Shown: one piece after another, positions 1 through 44,024 of the stretch
Position numbering within the stretch: position 1 is the first letter of the stretch
Layout of the letters: every line of letters begins with the position of its first letter
Assembly (NCBI RefSeq): GCF_009931435.1
Contig: NZ_CP043414.1
Strand: one strand, 5' to 3'
Source of the DNA: Escherichia coli
GTDB lineage: Bacteria; Pseudomonadota; Gammaproteobacteria; Enterobacterales; Enterobacteriaceae
Length of the DNA stretch: 64,000 nt
Made by a program: the position numbers and the translations under genes
Notes under the pieces: generated by a model
Databases searched by the model: none
What the model was told of the DNA's origin: nothing
Seen by the model: the letters and a program-made list of their open reading frames with translations, nothing else

Positions 1-422
1 TCAATCACGCTCATCGCCGTGGCGGTTTTGCTTACCTGCGCCAGCGAGCGGTTTAGTTGTTGGAGGGGGAAAAGTCGCGGGTCGGGAAAGGCCGAGGCAA
101 ACGGAACTACCGACGGATCGCGACTGGCCTGCAACATATCAAAAATATAGGTGTTGATATCGACTGCTTCATCTCGAGTGACTGGAATGACTGTCGCTTT
201 CGGCATTTTTATTGCCTGTGGCGCAACGTAATAACCCGATTGCGGTCGCGCGATAATATATCCCTGACTTTCGAGCAACTGATAGGCATGGCTGACAGTC
301 ATAAAGCTCATGCCAGAAAGCGCCACCTGGTCACGCAACGAAGGCAAACGATCTCCGGGTTGCCAGATACCCGACGCAATCTGCTCGCGTAATTGTTCTG
401 CAAGCTGCTGGTATTTTTTCAT
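1..422 (-). CDS. ydcR: MocR/GntR-family regulator YdcR (HTH plus aminotransferase-like domain), N-terminal part; gene continues beyond window start
   Basis: Minus-strand translation from ATG at 422-420 reads MKKYQQLAEQLREQIASGIWQPGDRLPSLRDQVALSGMSFMTVSHAYQLLE..., a GntR-type winged HTH; no stop before position 1. Listed +strand ORF 57-392 is its antisense. Confidence 0.8.
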   Translation of the reverse strand, partial: MKKYQQLAEQLREQIASGIWQPGDRLPSLRDQVALSGMSFMTVSHAYQLLESQGYIIARPQSGYYVAPQAIKMPKATVIPVTRDEAVDINTYIFDMLQASRDPSVVPFASAFPDPRLFPLQQLNRSLAQVSKTATAMSVI

Positions 423-500
423 TATCGAATCGTTATTATGTGCAGGTGATTCGGCAGTCTATATCAGTTGTTAAAAATGACAACTTTTCATTAACTGTTA

Positions 501-626
<126 letters not shown>

Positions 627-835
627 GTACCCACAATAACACGAGGGGGTACAACAATGAACATCGGTAAAGCAATCATCAACTACGCAGCGCGTCGCAA
701 CATGGACATTACCTGATTGACGATGAGACCGTGGCGTTCTGGGAAGCGGATAACGATTGTGAATGGATGTTCTCCTACATGATTGGTAATGATGGTTTCC
801 TCCACTTTAAAGGCAATGTGTATCTGCTGTAGTGG

Positions 836-1656
<821 letters not shown>

Positions 1657-1700
1657 GTTGCATACAACGGCAACAGGAAACCGCGCCCTGAGTTTCTCAA

Positions 1701-2012
<312 letters not shown>

Positions 2013-2088
2013 AATGTCACCTGTTTTTGACTATGAGGCGATGATATCACCTCTATTCAGGTGGCCAAATTCAGTGTGCCACTACAGT

Positions 2089-2265
2089 ATGGCTAAGATG
2101 GAATCAGAGATTAAATCACTTAAAGCTGATAACGCCGCATTACGAAAGAGTTTAAAACTGATTGATGAGACTAATGCGGTTATGATGGATCATGTATTCC
2201 CTGAGTGGCGAAATGAAACTAAACCTACACAATATAAGAAACCTACACTTCGAGTGGTTGCATAA
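2089..2265 (+). CDS. Hypothetical 58-aa coiled-coil protein, possibly a gene fragment truncated by the adjacent IS
   Basis: ATG at 2089 directly abuts the IS end (2086) with no Shine-Dalgarno; reads MAKMESEIKSLKADNAALRKSLKLIDETNAVMMDHVFPEWRNETKPTQYKKPTLRVVA. The listed ORF 2014-2265 begins inside the IS terminus. Confidence 0.3.
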   Translation: MAKMESEIKSLKADNAALRKSLKLIDETNAVMMDHVFPEWRNETKPTQYKKPTLRVVA

Positions 2266-2269
2266 AAAA

Positions 2270-2296
2270 AGGGACTCCGAAGAGTCCCTAGTAAGT
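2270..2296 (-). terminator. Intrinsic terminator (minus strand)
   Basis: Hairpin GGGACTC-TTCG-GAGTCCC followed by a run of seven T on the minus strand. Confidence 0.65.
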
Positions 2297-2371
2297 TTAG
2301 GTTAGGTTTGCACAACAAAGATGAGGTTATAATGAACATAATGCTACATTATTCTTTAAAGCCAGAAAAAT

Positions 2372-2392
2372 AACCGCCCCGAAGGGCGGGAG
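2372..2392 (-). terminator. Intrinsic terminator (minus strand) downstream of the small membrane-protein genes
   Basis: Minus-strand hairpin CCGCCC-TTCG-GGGCGG followed by TTATTTTTCT. Confidence 0.6.
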
Positions 2393-2547
2393 GATTAATA
2401 CTCAATCTATACTTGTTATGTTTTTATGTTGTATAGATCACTGACTATGAAAACACTGTACTGGAGTGTGTTTTATGGCTTTTAATCGGGAATCCTCAAA
2501 GAAGATCCCCTGTTAATAACCATAAGGAGAAAAGGCAGATTACACTA

Positions 2548-2721
2548 TTATTTAGCATCCTTTTTACAGCAACTAAAAAGAATAAACAGGATTAAACATC
2601 CCCAGCCGTAAGGTGTACCAATTAGAAATTTGAAAAACACCACCATCGATATAAAAATCAATTTAATGCCAGCGACGATAGTCAAAAACAGCAGAGTAGC
2701 AAAGTAGACAAAAAGATCCAT
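2548..2721 (-). CDS. Small hydrophobic protein (57 aa, about two TM segments, basic C-terminus); not in ORF track (under 60 aa)
   Basis: Manual translation MDLFVYFATLLFLTIVAGIKLIFISMVVFFKFLIGTPYGWGCLILFILFSCCKKDAK; ATG 2721-2719, TAA stop 2550-2548; co-directional with upstream genes and followed by the terminator at 2372-2392. Confidence 0.45.
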   Translation of the reverse strand: MDLFVYFATLLFLTIVAGIKLIFISMVVFFKFLIGTPYGWGCLILFILFSCCKKDAK

Positions 2722-2770
2722 AGATAATCCTCTTTGAAAACGACCATCATCTATAGTTCAATTCATCGAT

Positions 2771-2953
2771 TTAATTAATGATACTTGAAAGCGTTACACA
2801 CAGCAGAAATGCCAATATGTGCCATGAATATACGATAGTTAATCCTACAGTAAGACAAATCAAAAATTCAACCATAGGTAAATCCTCAAATAAGAAAAAG
2901 GTTAGCGGGGGGTGATTCCCCCCGTAGACGTTGACCAGCTCAACATCTTTCAT
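2771..2953 (-). CDS. Small hydrophobic protein (60 aa, about two TM segments)
   Basis: ORF-track protein MKDVELVNVYGGNHPPLTFFLFEDLPMVEFLICLTVGLTIVYSWHILAFLLCVTLSSIIN; starts 21 nt after the stop of the Nu1-like gene. Confidence 0.5.
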   Translation of the reverse strand: MKDVELVNVYGGNHPPLTFFLFEDLPMVEFLICLTVGLTIVYSWHILAFLLCVTLSSIIN

Positions 2954-2973
2954 ACATTTATTTATAACGCGTT

Positions 2974-3525
2974 TTAAGACACATCAAATTCATCGTCTTC
3001 TTCTGGTTCTTGTTCCGGTTCATCCATTAATGGTAATTCTTCTTCCTCGTCTTCTCCCAAATCAGCATTTTCGAACAAGTCCCCTACTTCATTTAAACGA
3101 AGCTCGATGATCTCCCTTAGCTTATTCTTCAATGTTTTCTGATCAGTGGCGGATTCTAAAATTTCTAGGGCATCGATTGTGGCGATCTGCAAGATAGTCT
3201 GCTTCACCTTCCCACAATATTCAGCTAGTTCCTGTTCTACATACCCGACCGGAATCAGGAGATTCATTGCTTCCTGGTTCTCTCGTTCGGCTGCATCTGC
3301 TAATGCTCTCTCACGGCGTAATTTCTCTACGTCGATTTGTTCCTTGATAGAAGTTTCTTTAAGCGGGTTAATGATGTTCTTCAAGACCCAATCACACCCA
3401 GGCTTCGCCGGGACACGTCTTGTATTTGTGTTATAAGGTAGACCCCTTTCTAACCATTTCTTAGCGGCGTTAATTGTATAGCCGTATAAGCGGGAAATTT
3501 CTGTAAGGGTTAATTCTTCTTTCAT
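2974..3525 (-). CDS. Putative DNA-binding protein resembling phage terminase small subunit Nu1 (N-terminal winged HTH, acidic C-terminal tail); orphan, no large terminase nearby
   Basis: Translation MKEELTLTEISRLYGYTINAAKKWLERGLPYNT...EKLRRERALADAAERE...DEEEELPLMDEPEQEPEEDDEFDVS has the layout of lambda gpNu1 as recalled. Start set at the second ATG (3525) because a GGAGG lies about 9 nt upstream; the listed ORF begins at 3540. Confidence 0.55.
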   Translation of the reverse strand: MKEELTLTEISRLYGYTINAAKKWLERGLPYNTNTRRVPAKPGCDWVLKNIINPLKETSIKEQIDVEKLRRERALADAAERENQEAMNLLIPVGYVEQELAEYCGKVKQTILQIATIDALEILESATDQKTLKNKLREIIELRLNEVGDLFENADLGEDEEEELPLMDEPEQEPEEDDEFDVS

Positions 3526-3886
3526 CCGGTTATCCTCCATTAAATTTGCGTAAAATTATTTATCTGATCTACGCATTCAGGAGAGCGCCTAAAACGCTTT
3601 CTAACGACATGAAAGATCTAGGCGTGGAAAGGAATTGGCGGGTGTTAATAGTCGCGTAGCGACCGCGCTGGTGGGCTGCACTGCACCTGTTTTGAAATCT
3701 CACACGCACATCAAATACCGGGGTGCCGAAAACTCCCTTTATTTCATCCGCGGAACAGTACCTTTTTAATTTGTCAAGCATTAATTTCTTAATTTAATTA
3801 CTAAATCTCACCCCAATAATTGAAAAAATATCAAAAATCAATAAAGTAAGCATCTAAAAGTCAGTCCATACCAAAAGAGGTATAAA

Positions 3887-4666
3887 ATGAAAAACATTAT
3901 CGCTGCTATCGTGCTTTCTGCTACTGCTTTCGGTGCTGATGCTGCGTCCTTTGATTGCACTAAGGCTATAACCAAATCAGAGAAGTTTATTTGTGCTAAT
4001 GAGTCAATCTCCGCACTGGATTCTAAACTTCATGAAGTATATGTTAAGGCTGTTAAGATTGATCCGTCTCTTAAACAAGAGCAACGCAACTGGAATAAAA
4101 CTGTTCGTGATACAATGATCAATATCGGGCAGATTCAGCCACTGGAGGCTGTATACAACGCTCAAATCCAAAACTTGATGAATGTATTATCTAAAGAAGA
4201 AACCGCGTCAGAGAGCGTTACAGATGATTCTGCAAAGGTTGAAGAAGAACAACCGAAACAGGAAGAAGTAAAGAAACTGAATGTTACCGCGATTTACGCA
4301 TGTACTGCAAAATTTACATGGAAAGTTATCGATGGTGAGGAAACAGAAGCTGTAAAAGATTACTTATACGGAAACAAAGATCATGATGATAAAGGCGGTA
4401 AACTTAAAATCAAACTGGTAGATGATGTTCCTGTGTATTTTGTTTACACCGACAAATATAACGTTTATAAATCACCACTCAAACCAGCTAAAGAAAATCC
4501 AAACGCAATGGAGGGTAAATCCAAACAGGATACTATTGGACGTGTTAACACTTATAACATCTGGGTAAGCAAAAAAGGTGACATGCGTCTTGAAGTTATT
4601 GAACCAAAATATGATTCTGAATATAAACACACTCAATTTGCATGTGACATGGTAGACGCAGAGTAA
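3887..4666 (+). CDS. Secreted/periplasmic protein with N-terminal DUF1311 (LprI-like lysozyme-inhibitor fold) domain and an uncharacterised C-terminal domain
   Basis: Signal peptide MKNIIAAIVLSATAFGADA; motif FDCTKAITKSEKFICANESISALDSKLHEVY typical of DUF1311; acidic linker; Shine-Dalgarno AGAGG 8 nt upstream. Confidence 0.75.
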   Translation: MKNIIAAIVLSATAFGADAASFDCTKAITKSEKFICANESISALDSKLHEVYVKAVKIDPSLKQEQRNWNKTVRDTMINIGQIQPLEAVYNAQIQNLMNVLSKEETASESVTDDSAKVEEEQPKQEEVKKLNVTAIYACTAKFTWKVIDGEETEAVKDYLYGNKDHDDKGGKLKIKLVDDVPVYFVYTDKYNVYKSPLKPAKENPNAMEGKSKQDTIGRVNTYNIWVSKKGDMRLEVIEPKYDSEYKHTQFACDMVDAE

Positions 4667-5226
4667 GAGGTGAAATGATGCAATTCAATAGCATGAAGAT
4701 TACTCAAAAATGGTGGGATGCGATGAAAGCTAACCACCAGAACGATATTAATTAAGTAACATTTTAGATATACAGCACCCAGCTAACAGATCACCTTTTA
4801 TGGATTTCATTATAACCCCTTTGATCTGGAAACTATGTTAATTAGTTGATTTCTAAGCCTTGTCCTTGTGATGGGGCTTTTTATTGCAAAATTTTTAGTT
4901 ATTTTGGGTTGACTACATTCGGGTTGCCAATTCGCCTGGCTAACTCTTGCTGAGTGATTTCTGACTGTAAAAAAGCATTTAACAGCAATACCTTAGAGGC
5001 GACGCTCAAAGGCACTTCAATAAAGTGATCGTGACTATTTAATGGCGAAGTTTACCTCCGTGTGTAATGTGCTCGAAAATAGCACTAAATCGCCGCAACG
5101 GCAGAATGCAATGCAAAATCAGGAAGGAAGATTCCAGAATTTCTTTGCGCTAATTTGCAAAACTGAATAATAACCTCAAGAAACGATCGGCATCATAGCG
5201 GCAAAAGGTCAGAAAAAGGTGGCGGG

Positions 5227-5457
5227 ATGTTTTCGAAGGCGTTATCGGTTGTCTTATTAACGTGTGCACTGTTCTCAGGACAACTCATGGCAGGGCACAA
5301 AGGACATGAATTTATGTGGGTAAAGAATGTGGATCATCAGCTGCGTCATGAAGCGGACAGCGATGAATTGCGTGCCGTGGCGGAAGAGTCGGCGGAAGGT
5401 TTGCGCGAGCATTTTTACTGGCAAAAATCGCGCAAACCAGAAGCAGGACAGCATTGA
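5227..5457 (+). CDS. yncJ: Small secreted protein YncJ
   Basis: 76-aa ORF MFSKALSVVLLTCALFSGQLMAGHKGHEF...WQKSRKPEAGQH, near-identical to E. coli YncJ as recalled. Confidence 0.9.
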   Translation: MFSKALSVVLLTCALFSGQLMAGHKGHEFMWVKNVDHQLRHEADSDELRAVAEESAEGLREHFYWQKSRKPEAGQH

Positions 5458-5467
5458 GTCGTATGAT

Positions 5468-5497
5468 GCCGGATGCGGCGTGACGCCTTACCCGGCC
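5468..5497. repeat. REP (repetitive extragenic palindromic) element
   Basis: GCCGGATGCGGCGTGACGCCTTACCCGGCC between convergent yncJ and ydcP. Confidence 0.6.
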
Positions 5498-5548
5498 AAC
5501 AAGATCATGCAGACTCAATGAGCTGAGAATAACCTGAAAACCTGCGTT

Positions 5549-7552
5549 TTATCCTTTACGCTTCGGCAATGTTTTTAGCAGCTCATCCGGGCTTACGGAG
5601 GCGACAACACTCCCTGGTAACGGCATTTTAAGAATGTGATTTTTGATTTTGCCAATGACGTGCATCTCACATGGGCGACAATCGAACTTTAGCGTTAATA
5701 CTTCATCGCCATTAACCAGTTGCATTGGCGTCGCCTTCCAGCTTTTGATGTTACCTTTTGCCTGTTTCGGACACAGATTGAAGGCAAAGCGCAGACAATG
5801 CTTGGTGATCATTACCGGCACTTCCCCCTTCTCTTCATGCGCTTCATACGCCGCATCAATCAGTTGCACACCATAGCGATGATAAAATTCACGCGCTTTC
5901 TGGTTGTAAACGTTCGCGAGGAAACTCAAATGCGTTTGCGGATAAACCGGCGCAGGGTCAGCAACCGGTTTACGACTGCCGCGCTGATAACTGGCAAGAC
6001 GTGCAGCATCCAGCATGTCAACGGCTTCACGGCGGAACTGATTTAACAGACTGTTCGGTACAAACAGCGCACCAGGCAGGTTAATTTGCACATCGCGGGC
6101 GTAATAGATGGTTTGCCCCAGCTTAGCCAGACCATCTTTCAGGTTATTAAGCGCTTTTTCGGCGTTATTAGCTTCGTCGAATTGTCCATCCAGCGTATGC
6201 GTGACGCTGACGCCCTCTTCACTGGTCAGGGTCAGAATCAGTTGTTCCTGCCAGCCGCCCAGTTCAATGTCTACCGCTACGCGACGTTCGCTGGATGTTT
6301 TGGTCAACGCCTGCTGCCAGTTATGGTCCAGATTACGATTAAGCGGATGATGCGGACGAATTTTATGCAAATCCGCAGGCATCTCATTTGGCCAGACGCG
6401 GTACTGATTTTGCCCGGTTTTTTCGACTGTATTGGCGCGAAAGCCAACCACTTCACGTTTAATCATCACATTCAGACCATCGCCATTTGCTAACGGCTCG
6501 GTGACGGCAACATCAATATGATCTTTCGCTACTTTCAATACTTCGCCCACCGGCAGGCCAATGAATTTCGGTGAATCGAACGCGCCAATATCGCCTTTAC
6601 GCGCGTTAACAAAGTAGTCTGTGCTGCCTCGGTGGAAAGTCTTTTCCGTCGACGGGACAAAGAAATGTTCAGTACGACCTGATGACGCACGCGCCAGATC
6701 GCCACGTTCTTCAATAATGGCATCCAGCATCTGGCGATAATGTGCGGTGATATTCTTCACGTAACTCATATCTTTGTAACGCCCTTCAATCTTGAAGGAG
6801 CGCACGCCAGCATCAATCAGCGCGCCGAGGTTGGCAGTCTGATCGTTATCTTTCATCGACAGCAGATGTTTTTCATAGGAAACCACCCGCCCCTGATCGT
6901 CTTTCAATGTGTATGGCAAACGGCACGCCTGCGAGCAATCGCCACGGTTGGCGCTACGCCCTGTTTGCGCATGAGAAATGTAGCACTGACCCGAATAGGC
7001 CACGCACAATGCACCATGAATAAAGAATTCAATGGTCGCGTCCGTGGCCTGGTGAATCGCGCGGATCTGCTCAAGATTCAGCTCTCGCGCCAGCACAATC
7101 TGCGTAAAGCCAACATCAGAGAGGAACTTCGCTTTTTCTACTGTGCGAATATCGCACTGCGTACTGGCGTGCAGTTCAATCGGCGGAATATCAAGTTCCA
7201 GAATCCCCATATCCTGAACAATCAGCGCATCGACGCCGGTCTGGTAGAGGTCGGTAATCAGCCGTTGCGCAGGTTCCAGCTCATCATCATGCAAAATGGT
7301 GTTAAGCGTGACGAAAATTTTTGCACCATAACGATGGGCAAACGGCACCAGTTCGGCAATATCTTTCAGGCTATTACTGGCATTATGACGGGCACCAAAA
7401 CCAGGGCCGCCGATATAAACAGCATCGGCACCGTGCAAAATAGCTTCGCGGGCAATGGCGGCATCGCGTGCCGGGCTTAACAGTTCAAGTCGATGAGAAG
7501 ATACGGTCACATTCTTATCCAGTAGCTGAAAAATGGCGGCTATTTTAGCCAC
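5549..7552 (-). CDS. ydcP: Peptidase U32-family protein YdcP (RlhA)
   Basis: 667-aa ORF with U32 peptidase-like core; the true start may be a few codons inside the listed ORF. Confidence 0.85.
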   Translation of the reverse strand: MAKIAAIFQLLDKNVTVSSHRLELLSPARDAAIAREAILHGADAVYIGGPGFGARHNASNSLKDIAELVPFAHRYGAKIFVTLNTILHDDELEPAQRLITDLYQTGVDALIVQDMGILELDIPPIELHASTQCDIRTVEKAKFLSDVGFTQIVLARELNLEQIRAIHQATDATIEFFIHGALCVAYSGQCYISHAQTGRSANRGDCSQACRLPYTLKDDQGRVVSYEKHLLSMKDNDQTANLGALIDAGVRSFKIEGRYKDMSYVKNITAHYRQMLDAIIEERGDLARASSGRTEHFFVPSTEKTFHRGSTDYFVNARKGDIGAFDSPKFIGLPVGEVLKVAKDHIDVAVTEPLANGDGLNVMIKREVVGFRANTVEKTGQNQYRVWPNEMPADLHKIRPHHPLNRNLDHNWQQALTKTSSERRVAVDIELGGWQEQLILTLTSEEGVSVTHTLDGQFDEANNAEKALNNLKDGLAKLGQTIYYARDVQINLPGALFVPNSLLNQFRREAVDMLDAARLASYQRGSRKPVADPAPVYPQTHLSFLANVYNQKAREFYHRYGVQLIDAAYEAHEEKGEVPVMITKHCLRFAFNLCPKQAKGNIKSWKATPMQLVNGDEVLTLKFDCRPCEMHVIGKIKNHILKMPLPGSVVASVSPDELLKTLPKRKG

Positions 7553-8210: not shown

Positions 8211-9383
8211 ATGCGTCTGTTTTCTATTCCTCCACCCACGCTACTGGCGGGGTTTCTGGCGGTATTAATTGGCTACGCCAGTTCAGCGGCAATAATCTGG
8301 CAAGCAGCGATTGTCGCCGGAGCCACCACTGCACAAATCTCTGGCTGGATGACGGCGCTGGGGCTGGCAATGGGCGTCAGTACGCTGGCTCTGACATTAT
8401 GGTATCGCGTACCTGTTCTCACCGCATGGTCAACGCCTGGCGCGGCTTTGTTGGTCACCGGATTACAGGGACTAACACTTAACGAAGCCATCGGCGTTTT
8501 TATTGTCACCAACGCGTTAATAGTCCTCTGCGGCATAACGGGACTCTTTGCTCGTCTGATGCGCATTATTCCGCACTCGCTTGCGGCGGCAATGCTTGCC
8601 GGGATTTTATTACGCTTTGGTTTACAGGCGTTTGCCAGTCTGGATGGTCAGTTTACGTTATGCGGTAGTATGTTGCTGGCGTGGCTGGCGACAAAAACTT
8701 ATGCGCCGCGTTATGCGGTAATTGCGGCGATGATAGTTGGCATCGTAATCGTTATTTTACAAGGTGACGTTGTCACAGGGGATATTGCCTTTAAACCCGT
8801 TCTCCCCGCTTATATTGCCCCTGAATTTTCGTTTGCTCACAGTCTGAGCGTTGCACTCCCCCTTTTTCTGGTGACGATGGCATCGCAAAACGCACCGGGT
8901 ATTGCGGCAATGAAAGCGGCCGGGTATTCGGCTCCTGTTTCGCCGTTGATTGTATTTACTGGATTGCTGGCGCTGGTATTTTCCCCTTTCGGGGTTTATT
9001 CCGTTGGTATTGCAGCAATCACCGCGGCTATTTGCCAAAGCCCGGAAGCGCATCCGGATAAAGATCAACGTTGGCTGGCAGCTGCCGTCGCAGGCGTTGT
9101 TTATTTGTTTGCAGGTCTGTTTGGTAGCGCCATAACTGGAATGATGGCCGCGCTGCCCGTGAGTTGGATCCAGATGCTGGCAGGTCTGGCGCTGTTGAGT
9201 ACCATTGGCGGCAGTTTGTATCAGGCGCTGCATAATGAGCGTGAGCGAGACGCGGCGGTGGTGGCATTTCTGGTAACGGCAAGTGGATTGACGCTGGTCG
9301 GGATTGGTTCTGCGTTCTGGGGATTAATTGCCGGAGGCGTTTGTTACGTGGTGTTGAATTTAATCGCTGACAGAAACCGATAA
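8211..9383 (+). CDS. ydcO: BenE-family inner-membrane transporter YdcO
   Basis: Polytopic membrane ORF; start placed at the ATG at 8211 (GAGGTG Shine-Dalgarno just upstream) rather than the listed 8154. Confidence 0.85.
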   Translation: MRLFSIPPPTLLAGFLAVLIGYASSAAIIWQAAIVAGATTAQISGWMTALGLAMGVSTLALTLWYRVPVLTAWSTPGAALLVTGLQGLTLNEAIGVFIVTNALIVLCGITGLFARLMRIIPHSLAAAMLAGILLRFGLQAFASLDGQFTLCGSMLLAWLATKTYAPRYAVIAAMIVGIVIVILQGDVVTGDIAFKPVLPAYIAPEFSFAHSLSVALPLFLVTMASQNAPGIAAMKAAGYSAPVSPLIVFTGLLALVFSPFGVYSVGIAAITAAICQSPEAHPDKDQRWLAAAVAGVVYLFAGLFGSAITGMMAALPVSWIQMLAGLALLSTIGGSLYQALHNERERDAAVVAFLVTASGLTLVGIGSAFWGLIAGGVCYVVLNLIADRNR

Positions 9384-38531: not shown

Positions 38532-41500
38532 TTAGAACGTTTTCTTGAAGTTCAGCATCACGCCTTTATCGCTGATACCATCCTCTTTCCAGTGGTAAGC
38601 ATCCAGATTCAGCGAACTTTCTTTGCTGCTGTACTTCACGCCGACGCTTGCCAGACTGTTGATGCCGCCGCCCTTCTGCCCATCATCGACATTAAAGTGC
38701 TGGCTGCCTGCGCCTGCCAGGCTTGCCGTGCGCTGGCTCTTGCTGTAGCTGAGGTTCGGCCCACCTTCCAGCGTGGCGTTCGCACTCCAGCCGTCTTTCC
38801 CTGCGTAGTCCAGCTTCAGCCCGACGATGCTGTCCACCGCCGTTTCGCTGCCGCTGTTCATGCTCAGGTTAAAGTCTCCGGCATTGCGCTCCTGATAGTC
38901 GCCTTCCAGCGTGTGACGCAGTTTCACACCCGCATATGGCGTGATTTTCAGCCCTTCGCGCGGTTCAAAGGTTTTCGCCCCTTCGCTGCGGAACTCCAGG
39001 TACTGTTGTTTCACATTCGTGTCTGCCGTCTTACTGATGTCGCCGTAAGCCACCGAACGGCTGCTGTCCAGTTGGTGAATATCGTAGCGCAGCGCGTTAT
39101 TCCAGCTCATACCGTTGTCAAAGGACATCTGATGCTTCAGGCCAAAGAACTGGCTGTAGCCGCCTGTAACACCATTATCACCCGCTTTCTGCGCACCATC
39201 GCCGTCCAGACGGGCGATACCGTACTCCAGGCTCATGGTCTGGTTTTCGCTCAGGTCGAGGGTTTTGCGCAGCGCCAGCATGTCGTACTCGGTATTATTC
39301 CCCAGCTCTGCACGCGGATCGCCTTTCGCCACCACGTTAAATGCCAGACCGTTGCCCATCTTCGGTGCTGCGTCTGCCAGCATACTAAAGCGATTGCTTA
39401 ACACACGCGCTTCGCGGAATACCGTGGTCGCCTGGCTACCGCTAATTTGCTTAAGTGCGCTGTTCAGCTCTGCAGTGGTGCCGACGTTCAGACTGGTATA
39501 CAGCTCATTGTTGGTGTAACCCGCATCCAGCGCTTTTGCCACGTCATTCACTGAGGCATCCGTCGCCACATCGGTGTAGGCTTTTTTGCTCATGGTCACG
39601 TCAACGTTGCCGCTGGCGTCGGTACTGCCTGTCGCCTGCCAGACAACAGATGTCGAAGTGATCGCTTGCGCATCGGTCAGGTTGCTGCCTTGCACCACAT
39701 CATCAAAGCTGGCGGTTTTGTCCGCCGTTCCCGCCGCAAAAGCAGTGTTGATCTCCACGCCTTTCATACTGGCGTTATTGACCATCAGCTTACCAGCGCT
39801 ACCATCGGCGTTCGTCCCCACCACGTAACCATTGAGGTTGTTCATGCCATCGTTGCGGCTAACGGAAGAAGAATGACTGTCGTCGTATGGCGTAATGGTG
39901 GGTTCTTCCGGCGCGGTAAAGTCGACATAGTGTACTTCCGTACCGTCTCCCCCTTCACCACTGCCCTCCATCACCGTGCCAGATTGTTTAATTAATCCGG
40001 AACCATTCACGCTGTCGTCAATATAAACAGTGCCGTTGTTAACAATATGACCATTGCTCCCGAGCTTGCTGAAGGCATATGAATTGCTGGCATATATATT
40101 GATGGTGCCGTTATTCTCAATCACCGCATCAGCCGTGGCATCGGATTCCAGTTGCATCCCTACCATGCCTGTCCTGGTAGTTCCTTGCGTGCCAACGTTA
40201 ATGGTGCCGTTGTTGATCATTTTGGCTTTACCGTGCGCCGACATCGCCACATTACTATTTTTGTCGATATTAATAATGCCGTCGTTTATTGCCTTGCTGG
40301 CCGTGTTTGATGTCAGGATCTGCCCGTTGATGAAGCCAGACTGGCCATTATAGAACGTATGCCCATCACCACCGGTGCTAATTCTCATGTCACCTTCTAC
40401 TGTCCCCCAATTATTAAAATGTCCTGTCCACAGCGCATTCGTCGCCACCGTTGCCACACTGCCTTCCAGATTGTTGAAGGTGCCACCTTTATCAACCGAT
40501 GCATTATTTACGGTACCAGCATTATTAAAGGTAGAGGCTGCAGCAAAAGTTATTTTCTCTACTTTTCCACCGGCCTGATTATTCATTACGGCAGACCCGG
40601 AAGAACCTTTCCAGGCGTTCACCGTTCCGGTGTTATAAAAATTGCTGGCCCACTGGTCAACCGTGTTGATGCTGCCTGAGTTGTGAATAACCGATCCTGC
40701 AACAGTCGTTCCGACTTGCCCGCTCACCGTACCTTCGTTAGTGAACACGCCGCCATCCACAGAAACAGTTTTTGTCGTGCCGTGGTTGGTGTATTCCCCA
40801 CCGGTTGCGATATCAACCTCAATAATACTGCCCGTGGTTTCATTGACCAGATGACCAAAGTCAGCCACGGTGACAGGTCCCCCGGTGACCGTACCCGTGT
40901 TTGTTACCAGGGTTTCGGCGGTTGCCGTGATATCAGTAGTACCGCCATATGAATACAGGTTAAGCGTTTCCCCGTCAGCCGAAATAATGTCACCATTTCT
41001 CCAGCTTAATGAAACAAACCCGTCAGTCGGGTTATAGGCGTTATTGTCCTGGCATTTCCCAAAAGTACAGATGGATCCGTAATTAACGATAGTCCCGCTG
41101 CCATCGTTATAGAACGCCTGCCCGTTTTCAGCATTAATATTGATGATGCCCGTCTGATCATTAATCGCAGTGGCACCATTGTAAACAGCCATGCCGACCA
41201 ATTTATTTGGCCCCAGCGTATCATCATCATTTTCATTTACTTCCAGATTTATAGTTCCCTGGTTAATAATAATGTTACCTGGCTTCATCGCAGCCATACC
41301 GGCACCGGAATTATAGAGTGTTATTTCACCACCCTGCTGGTTAATGGCGGTAGAATTAACGCTGGCACCAGAACTGTCTGTACCCACAGCCATCCCGACA
41401 GCATAATCTTTGGCGCTGTCATGAGCGATATTGGACGCCAGACTGGAAGTATCGTTTTCATCAACCCATAATGCGTCAATGAAAATCTTACCCATATTGT

Positions 41501-44024
41501 CAATGGTTGAATTATTGGAGGCCAGCATGCCAACACTCCCCCGGCCGTACATTTGGATCTCACCGGCAGTATTATTTAAAGCGGTGCCATTGTTGCCTGC
41601 CGTCATCCCCGTCAGACTAATGACTTGATTATTAAAAATTAAAGGGTCACTCAAACCTTGAGCGTTCAGACTATTGAAAATACGTCCCTGCGCGAGTACC
41701 TTACTGGTGATGGCACTGTTATTAACAACTCGACCACCATAGACGCTCAAATACGCAGAACTAGCAGAGTCTGATGTATTCCCCTCTACGCCGTAGATAG
41801 AAATCGTTACGTTGTTATTATTTACAGCTAGCGACTCTTCACCAGTAGCCCTGGCAAAGCCAATATTACCCAGTTCTACATCACCATTATTTATCATCTG
41901 CGAACCGGAATTCACCAGTACAACCTGTGATGTGTCACTATTATAATGTTCAAATGTATTTATATCTTTTAGGATAAAAGTGGCGTTGCGGCCAAGTTCT
42001 AAATGGGCTCGGTTATTCAGTTGAATGATATCGCCTAATCCAAGCGGAAAAACACCACTGATTGTTGAATCCCCATTTAGATACAGAGTAGAGTGCCCAT
42101 CGATTTTGATAACAGGCGTATCGCCATAACCATTACGTTTTAAAGCAGGTGTGGAGCCATCCTGTAGAGTATTTTCTTCGCCAGCTAAATGGATACCACC
42201 ATTAATTTCGACGGTATTACCGTCACCCGACACAACCAGACCATTAATATTTTCCTGGCTGCCATCCATTTCATTATAGATACGAGAAGTGACTTCACTG
42301 TCAGCAACAACGGTAAGATTGCCATTTAATACGATATTATTGTCGTGTCCCTGCACCTGAATGCCAACAGAAGGGGTAAAAAAGTCATTTATTGAATGCT
42401 CTCCGGCCTGATTTTTATCCACCAGAATATTACCGGTAATTTCAACTTCATTGCCATCACCGGCTACATTTACCCCTGTCGCAACACTGCCGGTCACATT
42501 AAGCTCATTTGTCGCCAGCGTCATGGCGTTATTATTTCCAGAGACATCCAGACCGGTTGAATAATCCCCTACATCCACACGGCCAGCCAGAGAAATCAGA
42601 CCATCATCTCCGATGATGCGAATCCCGGTACTGAAATTATCAGCAATGATGTCCCCCACATTGATAAGGGTAGAATGATTACCCTCAATCAGAATCCCTG
42701 TCGCATTGGCCTCTGAACTACCATTACTGACGGATATATCCCCCCTGTTAATGAACGTCGACGCATCACCACTGAGAGAAACACCCTGCGAATTTTCATC
42801 CACGACCGTTATATTTCCTTTGTTGCTGACGATCGCGCCATTACCCTCAACATCAATACCCCGTGCAGCATTGCTAACGTATAAATCCCCTTCCTGTATA
42901 ACCGTCGCATTATTACCAACGATTTTGCTGCCCGTTGAATTTTGCCCATCAACCGTCATATGTCCTTTATTATCGGTCCTGACATCATTACCGCTAATAA
43001 CGGCCCCTATTCCGCCGTTATTGACAGTGGAGTCGCCAGTGTTATTTAAGATTGTACGATCGCCATTGACGATAACCGCCGTGCCAGCATCGACCACCGT
43101 CTGACCGTTATTATTGATGGTTATATTATCGCCGGTCAGGATACCGACCACCGAACCTTCACCGACAGCCTCTGTTTTACCCTCGTTTGTCAGCGCAATG
43201 TTGTTACCATTAATCATCATCACCGTGCCGCCATTCAGGGCCGTGTTACCGCCCTGGTCAGTGATAATCGCATCATTAACGGTAATTATTCTGTCCGTTG
43301 TTCCATCAGACACGACACTGGCTAACTGTGTGACGTGGAGTTTACCTTCGTCATCGTAGCGCCATTCCATATCACCTGTGGTACTCACACCACTAAACAT
43401 GGCGGTATGAGTCTCTTCATGGTTTTCCCACTCAGTCACAATGGTTTTTCGGCCATCTTTTGCCGTCAGCGTGTAGCTACCATCTTCATTTTGGGTATAA
43501 GTGAACGTCGCCCCGCGAATCTTCAGGGTTTGCGCGTCCTTGTCCCATGTCACATTGTTATCAAAGACAACGGGTTCTGTTCTCGGGGGGTCAACATCAT
43601 CACCGCTATTGTCGGGTGGAGTAACATTACCGCCGTTATCTGGCTTTACAGGTATACCTGAATCTTCATCACTGGGAACGGGTAGCGGTAGAGGGCCATT
43701 ATCATCTGGCGGTATGGGCTGGGGAAAAGAAGAGTGAGCAGAATGATCATTGTCATGAGACAATTCAATCACTGCGAGTGTTGCCAGTACCGCCGTGGCA
43801 CCTAATGCCAGTAACGAGCTGAAACCATTATTTGTAACAACAGCACATTTTTCTGGCACTGTTTTCAACTTCGTTGACGGTCGGGCGTGCCCTTCTGACT
43901 GACATGTCATTTGAGAGCTTCTGCGCATACTGTCTGCACTCTCGCCTTCTGTTATTTCCGCCCCCCAGCTTTGGCCACTTAACGCTATAGCGATACACGC
44001 TGATAATAACGTTTTCTTTTGCAT
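38532..44024 (-). CDS. ydbA: Giant autotransporter adhesin YdbA, uninterrupted 1830-aa frame
   Basis: Signal peptide, long degenerate beta-helical passenger repeats (N-x-G-x-I/V motifs) and C-terminal beta-barrel translocator ending ...MLNFKKTF. Confidence 0.9.
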   Translation of the reverse strand: MQKKTLLSACIAIALSGQSWGAEITEGESADSMRRSSQMTCQSEGHARPSTKLKTVPEKCAVVTNNGFSSLLALGATAVLATLAVIELSHDNDHSAHSSFPQPIPPDDNGPLPLPVPSDEDSGIPVKPDNGGNVTPPDNSGDDVDPPRTEPVVFDNNVTWDKDAQTLKIRGATFTYTQNEDGSYTLTAKDGRKTIVTEWENHEETHTAMFSGVSTTGDMEWRYDDEGKLHVTQLASVVSDGTTDRIITVNDAIITDQGGNTALNGGTVMMINGNNIALTNEGKTEAVGEGSVVGILTGDNITINNNGQTVVDAGTAVIVNGDRTILNNTGDSTVNNGGIGAVISGNDVRTDNKGHMTVDGQNSTGSKIVGNNATVIQEGDLYVSNAARGIDVEGNGAIVSNKGNITVVDENSQGVSLSGDASTFINRGDISVSNGSSEANATGILIEGNHSTLINVGDIIADNFSTGIRIIGDDGLISLAGRVDVGDYSTGLDVSGNNNAMTLATNELNVTGSVATGVNVAGDGNEVEITGNILVDKNQAGEHSINDFFTPSVGIQVQGHDNNIVLNGNLTVVADSEVTSRIYNEMDGSQENINGLVVSGDGNTVEINGGIHLAGEENTLQDGSTPALKRNGYGDTPVIKIDGHSTLYLNGDSTISGVFPLGLGDIIQLNNRAHLELGRNATFILKDINTFEHYNSDTSQVVLVNSGSQMINNGDVELGNIGFARATGEESLAVNNNNVTISIYGVEGNTSDSASSAYLSVYGGRVVNNSAITSKVLAQGRIFNSLNAQGLSDPLIFNNQVISLTGMTAGNNGTALNNTAGEIQMYGRGSVGMLASNNSTIDNMGKIFIDALWVDENDTSSLASNIAHDSAKDYAVGMAVGTDSSGASVNSTAINQQGGEITLYNSGAGMAAMKPGNIIINQGTINLEVNENDDDTLGPNKLVGMAVYNGATAINDQTGIININAENGQAFYNDGSGTIVNYGSICTFGKCQDNNAYNPTDGFVSLSWRNGDIISADGETLNLYSYGGTTDITATAETLVTNTGTVTGGPVTVADFGHLVNETTGSIIEVDIATGGEYTNHGTTKTVSVDGGVFTNEGTVSGQVGTTVAGSVIHNSGSINTVDQWASNFYNTGTVNAWKGSSGSAVMNNQAGGKVEKITFAAASTFNNAGTVNNASVDKGGTFNNLEGSVATVATNALWTGHFNNWGTVEGDMRISTGGDGHTFYNGQSGFINGQILTSNTASKAINDGIINIDKNSNVAMSAHGKAKMINNGTINVGTQGTTRTGMVGMQLESDATADAVIENNGTINIYASNSYAFSKLGSNGHIVNNGTVYIDDSVNGSGLIKQSGTVMEGSGEGGDGTEVHYVDFTAPEEPTITPYDDSHSSSVSRNDGMNNLNGYVVGTNADGSAGKLMVNNASMKGVEINTAFAAGTADKTASFDDVVQGSNLTDAQAITSTSVVWQATGSTDASGNVDVTMSKKAYTDVATDASVNDVAKALDAGYTNNELYTSLNVGTTAELNSALKQISGSQATTVFREARVLSNRFSMLADAAPKMGNGLAFNVVAKGDPRAELGNNTEYDMLALRKTLDLSENQTMSLEYGIARLDGDGAQKAGDNGVTGGYSQFFGLKHQMSFDNGMSWNNALRYDIHQLDSSRSVAYGDISKTADTNVKQQYLEFRSEGAKTFEPREGLKITPYAGVKLRHTLEGDYQERNAGDFNLSMNSGSETAVDSIVGLKLDYAGKDGWSANATLEGGPNLSYSKSQRTASLAGAGSQHFNVDDGQKGGGINSLASVGVKYSSKESSLNLDAYHWKEDGISDKGVMLNFKKTF

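Follow-up and report, generated by a model that had tools for sequence, protein, structure and literature searches.

The locus between ydcR and yncJ was investigated in a stretch of 64,000 nucleotides from Escherichia coli (contig NZ_CP043414.1 of assembly GCF_009931435.1), hereafter the window. In BL21-type genomes these genes enclose hicB and hicA, as the original prediction for this DNA had stated for K-12. In the window an AT-rich block, beginning directly behind an insertion sequence (IS) of the IS911 type, lies there. We consider it very probable that this block (2087–4923) is the right arm of a degraded temperate prophage of ~36 kb, which had integrated in hicB and from which ~32.8 kb were lost beside the IS. 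Ordinary decay of the genome, and no hotspot for defence or addiction genes, accounts for the locus, which contains a cryptic prophage truncated by an IS on a common allele with hicA deleted.

Breakpoints of the Foreign Block

The breakpoints were obtained by pairwise blastn of the window against the empty locus of a BL21-type genome (L003) and against the two ends of the corresponding locus of strain 2014EL-1346-6 (O6:H16; L002 and L004). For the final map (table 1), these alignments were combined with the IS ends, seen directly in the sequence, and with the derived crossovers at the attachment (att) sites. Window segments 1–621 and 4918–5050 were found to be neighbours in the empty locus. 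In 2014EL-1346-6, the two pieces of hicB are separated by a prophage of ~35.8 kb. Window 1–827 was 97% identical to L004 15825–16652, continuing past hicB into the left end of this prophage, and window 2097–5050 aligned with its right end. The same right arm terminates prophages in UTME-9, EC05, rl0044, and others.

These junctions refine the earlier picture of the locus considerably. It had described hicB as cut down to its last ~38 codons, which is correct for the fragment at 501–620 (annotated by RefSeq as a hicB pseudogene without its N-terminus), but a second fragment with codons ~60–101 at 4926–5050 had been missed; RefSeq lists this internal fragment as a hicB pseudogene lacking both termini. 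Thus, intact hicAB is absent from the window, which has no hicA and only the two hicB fragments at 501–614 and 4926–5050. The cargo had been placed directly after the IS, and the block does start at 2087, but 213 bp of the other end of the same element (615–827) precede the IS. The right boundary, given as 5100 and regarded as uncertain, lies ~175 bp further left, at 4923/4925. That about 3 kb are foreign to K-12 was confirmed, since the AT-rich block of ~2.8 kb has no counterpart in K-12 or BL21-type genomes. Its base composition likewise sets it apart from the rest of the window: the GC content of 2087–4923 was 38.0%, compared with 48.9 ± 2.5% (minimum 43.0%) in equally long segments taken from other parts of the 64 kb.

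The presence of an IS911-like element after the first hicB fragment was also verified. It belongs to the IS3 family, with exact ends at 828 and 2086, and its inverted repeats are IS911-like with TG...CA ends (TGTAGTGG...CCACTACA; TGTAGTGGTCAAC.../...GCCACTACA; TGTAGTGGTCAACAAAAATTGGCCAC.. / ..GTGGCCAAATTCAGTGTGCCACTACA). As in other members of the IS911/IS3 family, the length is ~1.25 kb and there are two genes, orfA (1701–2012) and orfB. The latter is split into 1354–1656 and 836–1366 (break at ~1360) by a frameshift that is additional to the programmed one, and RefSeq annotates the element as “IS3 family transposase, frameshifted” (pseudogene). In contrast to common E. coli copies of the IS3 family, to which it is only ~60–80% identical, it shows this extra frameshift and lacks a target-site duplication, its flanks TCTGC and GTATG being different. 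The full 1259 bp were 99% identical to copies in a handful of other genomes, close copies (≥95%) occurred in only ~18 records, and the host contains a single copy. Since the two flanks of the IS map ~32.75 kb apart in the prophage of the intact relative, they bear the signature of an IS-associated deletion. The missing target duplication and the split orfB are consistent with such a deletion and with a decayed transposase. The IS cuts the first open reading frame (ORF) of the prophage left end after 57 codons. An apparent ORF at 2014–2265 was rejected, since IS sequence has been joined there by chance to a truncated ORF of the phage. We also rejected H26 (AVS0193) as a version of the locus with the IS only, because its IS is an unrelated ISEc52, inserted in rlhA of a genome with the 445-bp deletion allele described below.

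Table 1.— Features of the ydcR–yncJ locus in the window
Feature	Position	Strand	Evidence or remark
ydcR, 5′ part	up to 422		
hicB 3′ fragment, codons ~102–138 and stop; chromosomal arm of attL	501–614	-	96.6% identical to BL21-type hicB
attL central TT, putative crossover	613–614		attB(hicB), attL, and attR compared with attL and attR of ycdX-inserted members of the same phage family
Prophage left-end remnant, 213 bp: P′ arm and 57 codons (657–827) of first prophage ORF	615–827	+	
IS3-family (IS911-like) element, 1259 bp	828–2086	-	Inverted repeats read directly
Prophage right arm, 2.84 kb, 38% GC	2087–4923		93% identical to right end of 2014EL-1346-6 hicB prophage
3′ part of 80-aa prophage ORF, first ~74 nt lost to IS	2087–2265	+	L002 coding sequence 3927–4169 corresponds to window ~2023–2265
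Terminator-like hairpins	2270–2391	-	Terminator scan
Hydrophobic ORF, 57 aa	2548–2721	-	Inside variable cassette 2556–2895
Gene like terminase small subunit (TerS-like), 183 aa annotated; ORF reaches 3540	2974–3525	-	
Secreted two-domain protein, 259 aa, prophage moron	3887–4666	+	
Terminator-like hairpin and T-run after moron	4855–4879	+	Terminator scan; in conserved last ~85 bp of phage arm
attR central TT	4924–4925		att-site comparison
Internal hicB fragment, codons ~60–101; chromosomal arm of attR	4926–5050	-	97.7% identical to L003 3001–3133, BL21-type hicB
444/445-bp deletion junction	5050/5051		
Ordinary intergenic region upstream of yncJ	5051–5226		
yncJ	5227–5457		

Intact Relatives of the Prophage

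The intact prophage of 2014EL-1346-6 begins at its left end with three small ORFs, followed by a 559-aa recombinase, an endolysin-like D-Ala-D-Ala carboxypeptidase, and tail genes, and it continues with a 667-aa capsid protein, the portal, a gpA-type large terminase subunit (TerL), a Rha regulator, and the right arm found in the window. Considering its Pfam domains (Resolvase, 5.8e-14; Recombinase, 3.6e-7; Zn_ribbon_recom, 1.6e-9) and its match to PHROG 95, an integrase family (E 7e-58), the 559-aa protein is a large serine recombinase; its gene is absent from the window. About 20–30 complete genomes besides that of the window have such a ~36-kb prophage inside hicB. At least 18 genomes showed the full-length arrangement, with the integrase 29–36 kb from the right arm at hicB. 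Strains O55:H7 DEC5A and ETEC4085 are further examples of full-length lysogens. In IMG/VR, ~23 viral contigs represented the prophage family, mostly 35–38 kb in length, and their TerS-like gene was 0.5–1.7 kb off a contig end. Overall, the phage lineage occurs in ~1% of complete E. coli genomes. The window keeps only the TerS-like gene and morons, while the relatives possess the full set of virion, packaging, and lysis genes. Because these genes are gone, the window contains a remnant and not a prophage, and this stump no longer excises, replicates, or packages.

The lineage and its attachment site in hicB appear to be undescribed; the literature, searched for prophage attachment at hicB, yncJ, or ycdX, gave nothing relevant. 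Members of the same phage family were also seen inside ycdX in UTME-9 (L005 8781–9185, L013 976–1317) and 14EC007 (L014). The recombinase of these ycdX-inserted phages is ~93% identical at the nucleotide level, and the variant is present in ~33 genomes. The recombinase of ETEC1717 has a nucleotide identity of 91.7%, yet this prophage is at hicB; therefore, identity is no simple predictor of site choice. In 14EC007, a DEAD/DEAH helicase and hypothetical genes directly downstream of the recombinase represent another variable slot.

Attachment Sites and Their Effect on hicB

The attB site in hicB, ..CTGTTTAGGT-TT-GCCAATTCGCC.., is situated in the part that encodes the helix-turn-helix (HTH). The corresponding junctions are ..TTTAGGT-TT-GCC(A/T)AATATCATGTACCC.. 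for attL and ..ACATTCGGG-TT-GCCAATTCGCC.. for attR, and they were concordant in three genomes. For the insertions in ycdX (site ..TTTGGGA-TT-TCCGGG..), attL reads ..TTTGGGA-TT-GCCAAATATC.. and attR reads ..TTCGGG-TT-TCCGGGATGG... A crossover at TT was the sole fit to both the hicB and the ycdX sites. A GGN-TT-NCC dyad is common to all three sites, with a core of 2 bp and no long direct repeats. The two hicB alignments overlap by 14 bp, and we rejected this overlap as a 14-bp core: it is the shared GCCAA next to the TT crossover. The attP site was reconstructed and not observed; it would read ..ACATTCGGG-TT-GCCAAATATCATG.., giving the predicted string ..ACATTCGGGTTGCCAAATATCATG.., and excision should restore an attB of the form ..TTTAGGTTTGCCAATTCG... 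Empty attB is abundant among the complete genomes.

Large serine recombinases are known to insert prophages within genes, such as SPbeta in spsM of Bacillus and A118 and phi10403S in comK of Listeria, and integrases of the phiC31 and Bxb1 types belong to the same class. The prophages described here resemble them in their integration inside a coding sequence, in a 2-bp core with an imperfect dyad, and, in intact relatives, in a recombinase gene at one end of the prophage. Compared with SPbeta, A118, phiC31, and Bxb1 by their general description, they differ in the host, E. coli, and in the targets, the HTH-coding part of hicB or ycdX. Moreover, the window copy has lost its recombinase along with 90% of the phage. 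The serine integrase for hicB and ycdX, together with its att sites, is a candidate genome-engineering tool.

In lysogens that have hicA, hicB is cut after codon 101, between ..QQELARRIG and KPKQEITRL.., leaving HicB(1–101) with 8 phage-encoded residues (L002 6741–7136). Judged from the protein sequence, this cut probably removes the recognition helix of the DNA-binding domain of HicB and keeps the N-terminal domain, so that lysogens should hold a HicB with the N-terminal domain but without the DNA-recognition helix. The hicA gene was annotated as frameshifted in several carriers (L007, L009, L012). The frameshifted “mRNA interferase” allele also occurs in non-carriers, and thus no link of the hicA frameshift to the prophage is established.

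Loss of hicA and Distribution of the Locus

The original prediction held that the cargo replaced hicAB in a variable slot. Our results overturned this view: the cargo is inserted in hicB, and almost every other carrier has hicA and the 5′ three-quarters of hicB directly next to the block, a finding that the original prediction had itself named as contrary evidence. What the window lacks is a segment of 444/445 bp with hicB codons 1–59, hicA, and ~44 bp upstream of hicA (L003 3134–3577), which takes away part of the promoter region. The junction of this deletion at 5050/5051 was identical in NCTC11151, a strain free of the cargo, whose alignment was free of gaps over window 4924–6432, and the 445-bp deletion allele was present in roughly 1100–1200 (about 1160) of the 5426 complete E. 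coli genomes. Since the same junction exists in cargo-free genomes as a common allele, the loss of hicA is independent of the cargo. Because the deletion does not reach attB, integration of the phage would still be possible. The deletion allele travels with a yncJ allele that RefSeq labels “DUF2554 family protein” (L011 1296–1532).

Among the 5426 genomes, only 1, that of 2020CK-00188 (a human rectal swab isolate, USA), to whose chromosome the window is 100% identical, had the arrangement of window 1–5600, and only 18 held at least 80% of the block 2087–5100. A query with the empty locus reached at least 80% coverage contiguously in 4218 genomes (~78%). The remaining ~1200 mostly showed the two-piece pattern (516 bp) of the 445-bp deletion (~22%). 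The hicAB locus was split into two places in only ~35 genomes (0.65%), and every split locus that we opened contained the same prophage family.

These distributions bear directly on the proposal that ydcR–yncJ is a hotspot of interchangeable defence or addiction cassettes, with a non-hicAB cassette in the window strain, which the original prediction had favoured and which we now regard as very unlikely. It is true that the block is foreign, AT-rich, and rare, that hicA is missing from the window, and that the arm contains strain-variable cassettes. However, a locus that is intact in ~78%, plainly deleted in ~22%, and split in only ~0.65% of the genomes, with the same prophage family in every split locus inspected, does not behave like a slot for alternative cargo, and the position of hicA and the hicB 5′ part beside the block in nearly all other carriers argues against replacement. 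No PADLOC defence model gave a significant match to six ORFs of the cargo, and scans of the cargo ORFs with NCBIfam and PHROGs identified no defence or TA (toxin–antitoxin) family. The variability itself is that of the phage and not of a chromosomal slot. Comparison of six loci (including L005, L007, and L008) showed that two variable cassettes, 2556–2895 and 3783–4838, lie in an otherwise conserved right arm. The first comprises small membrane-protein ORFs or, in UTME-9 and rl0044, a 95-aa membrane protein; the second holds, depending on the strain, an LprI-like gene, a 1065-bp GIY-YIG nuclease gene, or a 306-bp ORF. The last block of the arm, 4839–4925, was conserved across all relatives.

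Reduced Copies and a Model of Prophage Decay

Apart from the window, two other reduced copies were found. In EC05 (L009), ISKpn26 adjoins the 3′ fragment of hicB and ~4.3 kb of the right arm is kept. In EC7072022BGR (L012), an att-bounded mini-element of 5.5 kb is inserted in hicB; it is made up only of the three small left-end ORFs and the genes for the serine recombinase, the TerS-like protein, and the LprI-like protein. The right arm (TerS-like plus LprI-like gene) was retained in all three independently reduced copies, which could reflect selection for the moron or chance.

Such copies raise the possibility that the arms belong to a small satellite-like integrative element (integrase, small terminase, and moron) parasitising a helper phage, and that the window contains a crippled copy of it. 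The 5.5-kb element of EC7072022BGR, the TerS-like gene beside attR and distant from TerL, and the repeated retention of the right arm in three independent reduced forms would fit this scenario. Nevertheless, the same arms flank a contiguous phage genome of 36 kb in at least 18 genomes. Only a single mini-element was seen, in which genes for replication or helper interference are missing; the window copy has no integrase, and the reductions in the window and EC05 are explained by IS insertions (IS3-family and ISKpn26, respectively). We therefore judge a satellite origin to be highly improbable. Delivery of the cargo by the IS911-like element, as a composite transposon or by one-ended transposition, deserves next to no credence: the IS does abut the block exactly at 2086/2087, but it is present once and without a target-site duplication; DNA of the phage left end is found beyond it, and on its other side (4923/4925) the block stops at the attR junction shared with ~30 genomes that have no such IS.

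The junctions, the homology to intact prophages, the gene content, and the frequencies in the population were observed directly; for a degraded prophage, we infer the following order of events. An ancestor would have carried the common 445-bp hicAB deletion allele, with the 3′ two-thirds of hicB kept. The ~36-kb prophage would then have entered this hicB remnant by conservative site-specific recombination between attP and attB, presumably catalysed by a serine recombinase like that of the relatives, the enzyme itself being absent from the window. Subsequently, the IS911-like element may have inserted in the prophage, and an IS-associated deletion of ~32.8 kb, through an adjacent deletion or through recombination between two IS copies, would have removed the integrase, lysis, tail, head, portal, large terminase, and regulatory genes. 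This would have left behind a single IS copy with no duplicated target, together with 213 bp from the left end of the prophage and 2.84 kb from its right end. An extra frameshift within the IS is likely to have arisen later.

Several observations weigh against this reconstruction. The stump was only ~93% identical to the best intact relative, and the direct parent is thus unsampled. An exact search for the reconstructed attP in IMG/VR and JGI metagenome contigs found no free or circular junction; therefore attP stays a reconstruction, and activity of the phage is putative. Among the isolate phages of INPHARED, none resembled this lineage: TerL was at most 44% identical to that of any of them, and the TerS-like protein had no tblastn match. 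In the intact relatives, a distance of ~6.5 kb, occupied by genes of either strand, separates the TerS-like gene from TerL, which is atypical for a terminase pair. Finally, on the evidence of one genome, the hicA deletion may have preceded or followed the integration.

The remnant is comparable to the K-12 cryptic prophages Rac, DLP12, e14, and Qin, in which a few kilobases of phage DNA likewise persist at an att site with IS truncation, without mobility functions, and with a retained moron that is possibly expressed. In contrast to them, it derives from a different lineage with a serine rather than a tyrosine integrase, and its arrangement is found in one sequenced strain.

Gene Content of the Right Arm

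The TerS-like protein matched PHROG 57, “terminase small subunit” (E 4.4e-13, residues 2–173 of 188), and shared 92% identity with its counterpart in the intact prophage; searches of Pfam, NCBIfam, and the PDB gave no match. In the stump this gene is a fossil. The 57-aa ORF was intact in three relatives with few substitutions and had no family match in PHROGs, NCBIfam, or PADLOC; its hydrophobic sequence makes a membrane protein the probable product. Two other candidates were rejected. The ORF at 2771–2953, considered as a microcin-like peptide with a double-glycine leader (MKDVELVNVYGG...), has a frame that is broken in three relatives, and the ORF at 3569–3781 (70 aa) is not conserved as an ORF in the relatives. 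Judging from the gene content, the products that are plausibly still active would be at most the secreted moron protein, whose gene is followed by a terminator of its own, and possibly the 57-aa membrane peptide. Among INPHARED isolate phages, the right arm had no DNA match save for the moron gene, which matched T4-like phages.

The Secreted Moron Protein

In the moron protein, a signal peptide precedes a helical DUF1311/LprI domain, which an acidic linker connects to a beta-barrel of eight strands that has two conserved cysteines. Only 21 clusters of homologues were found in a collection of 5.8 billion proteins, originating from E. coli prophages and T4-like phages. In genomes of the lytic, RB49-like Krischvirus, window ~3881–4751 is matched in two pieces with a DNA identity of 91–93%. 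The counterpart in RB49 is RB49p262 (L010 2507–3339), one of a group of small ORFs that separates gene 52 from gene t. A 26-codon ORF directly downstream of the moron (4675–4755) matches the 5′ end of RB49p261. The Pfam match of the moron to LprI/DUF1311 (PF07007) is weak (E 1e-3), reaching E ≤ 1e-3 in 18 of 22 relatives; a weak DUF1311 match of the RB49 ORF was already listed in 2006 (PMC1524935). MliC (PF09864) was not matched by any of 22 family members.

The two domains differ sharply in conservation. Residues 20–103 showed a mean pairwise identity of 97% across the family, in contrast to a mean of 32% and a minimum of 9% for the barrel (residues 131–259). The C-terminal cysteine C253 was present in all family sequences and C139 in at least 90%. 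An AlphaFold2 model (mean predicted local distance difference test score 73.6; barrel ~88) displayed the helical N-terminal domain, a disordered acidic linker, and the 8-stranded barrel. In Foldseek searches of the AlphaFold database, both domains aligned with proteins annotated as MliC or C-type lysozyme inhibitor (E 6e-7 to 1e-5), while against the PDB only weak, generic barrel matches were returned, none with E ≤ 1e-3. The LprI protein of Mycobacterium tuberculosis has the same domain order, with DUF1311 ahead of a barrel of eight beta-strands that a cysteine pair closes. Unlike LprI and the MliC/PliC lysozyme inhibitors, the moron protein has no lipobox, and its barrel is hypervariable. 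Because the lipobox is missing, the protein is predicted to be soluble in the periplasm and not a lipoprotein.

In the Salmonella protein ScwA, the LprI/DUF1311 domain alone confers no lysozyme resistance, the MliC domain being the inhibitor (PMC7933661), and DUF1311 proteins have been proposed as type VI secretion system (T6SS) immunity proteins (PMC12135965). That the moron encodes an inhibitor of periplasmic hydrolases is therefore a hypothesis and not a result. A more specific version, in which it belongs to a polymorphic, phage-borne family of periplasmic inhibitors that combines an invariant DUF1311 domain with a diversifying MliC-like barrel and neutralises peptidoglycan hydrolases, is conceivable but doubtful. 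Proposed targets are host lysozyme, the tail lysozymes of superinfecting phages, or T6SS effectors. If it were true, selection for hydrolase inhibition could explain why the right arm was kept in three independently reduced copies. The DUF1311-barrel protein is the only element of the locus that might repay further work.

Flanking Regions

The right flank was patchily divergent at 5300–6800 and 8550–9300, covering the 3′ part of yncJ, rlhA, and part of the sutR–ydcO region. Identity there to O6:H16, BL21, and NCTC11151 was 86–94% per 250-bp window, compared with 96–99% on the ydcR side, a pattern that suggests recombination with a divergent lineage. An Rfam scan of 1–5600 at E ≤ 1 yielded a single, sub-threshold match outside the cargo, to naRNA4 (29 bits vs. 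a gathering score of 59.5), at 5461–5497 on the minus strand between yncJ and rlhA; it is probably an element of the REP (repetitive extragenic palindromic) type. At a greater distance, beside genes like ynbA-D and ydbC, an uninterrupted autotransporter ORF of 1830 aa occupies 38532–44024 on the minus strand. Its C-terminal 1400 residues match NCBIfam BigA with a score far under the curated cut-off; its K-12 counterpart, ydbA, is disrupted by an IS.

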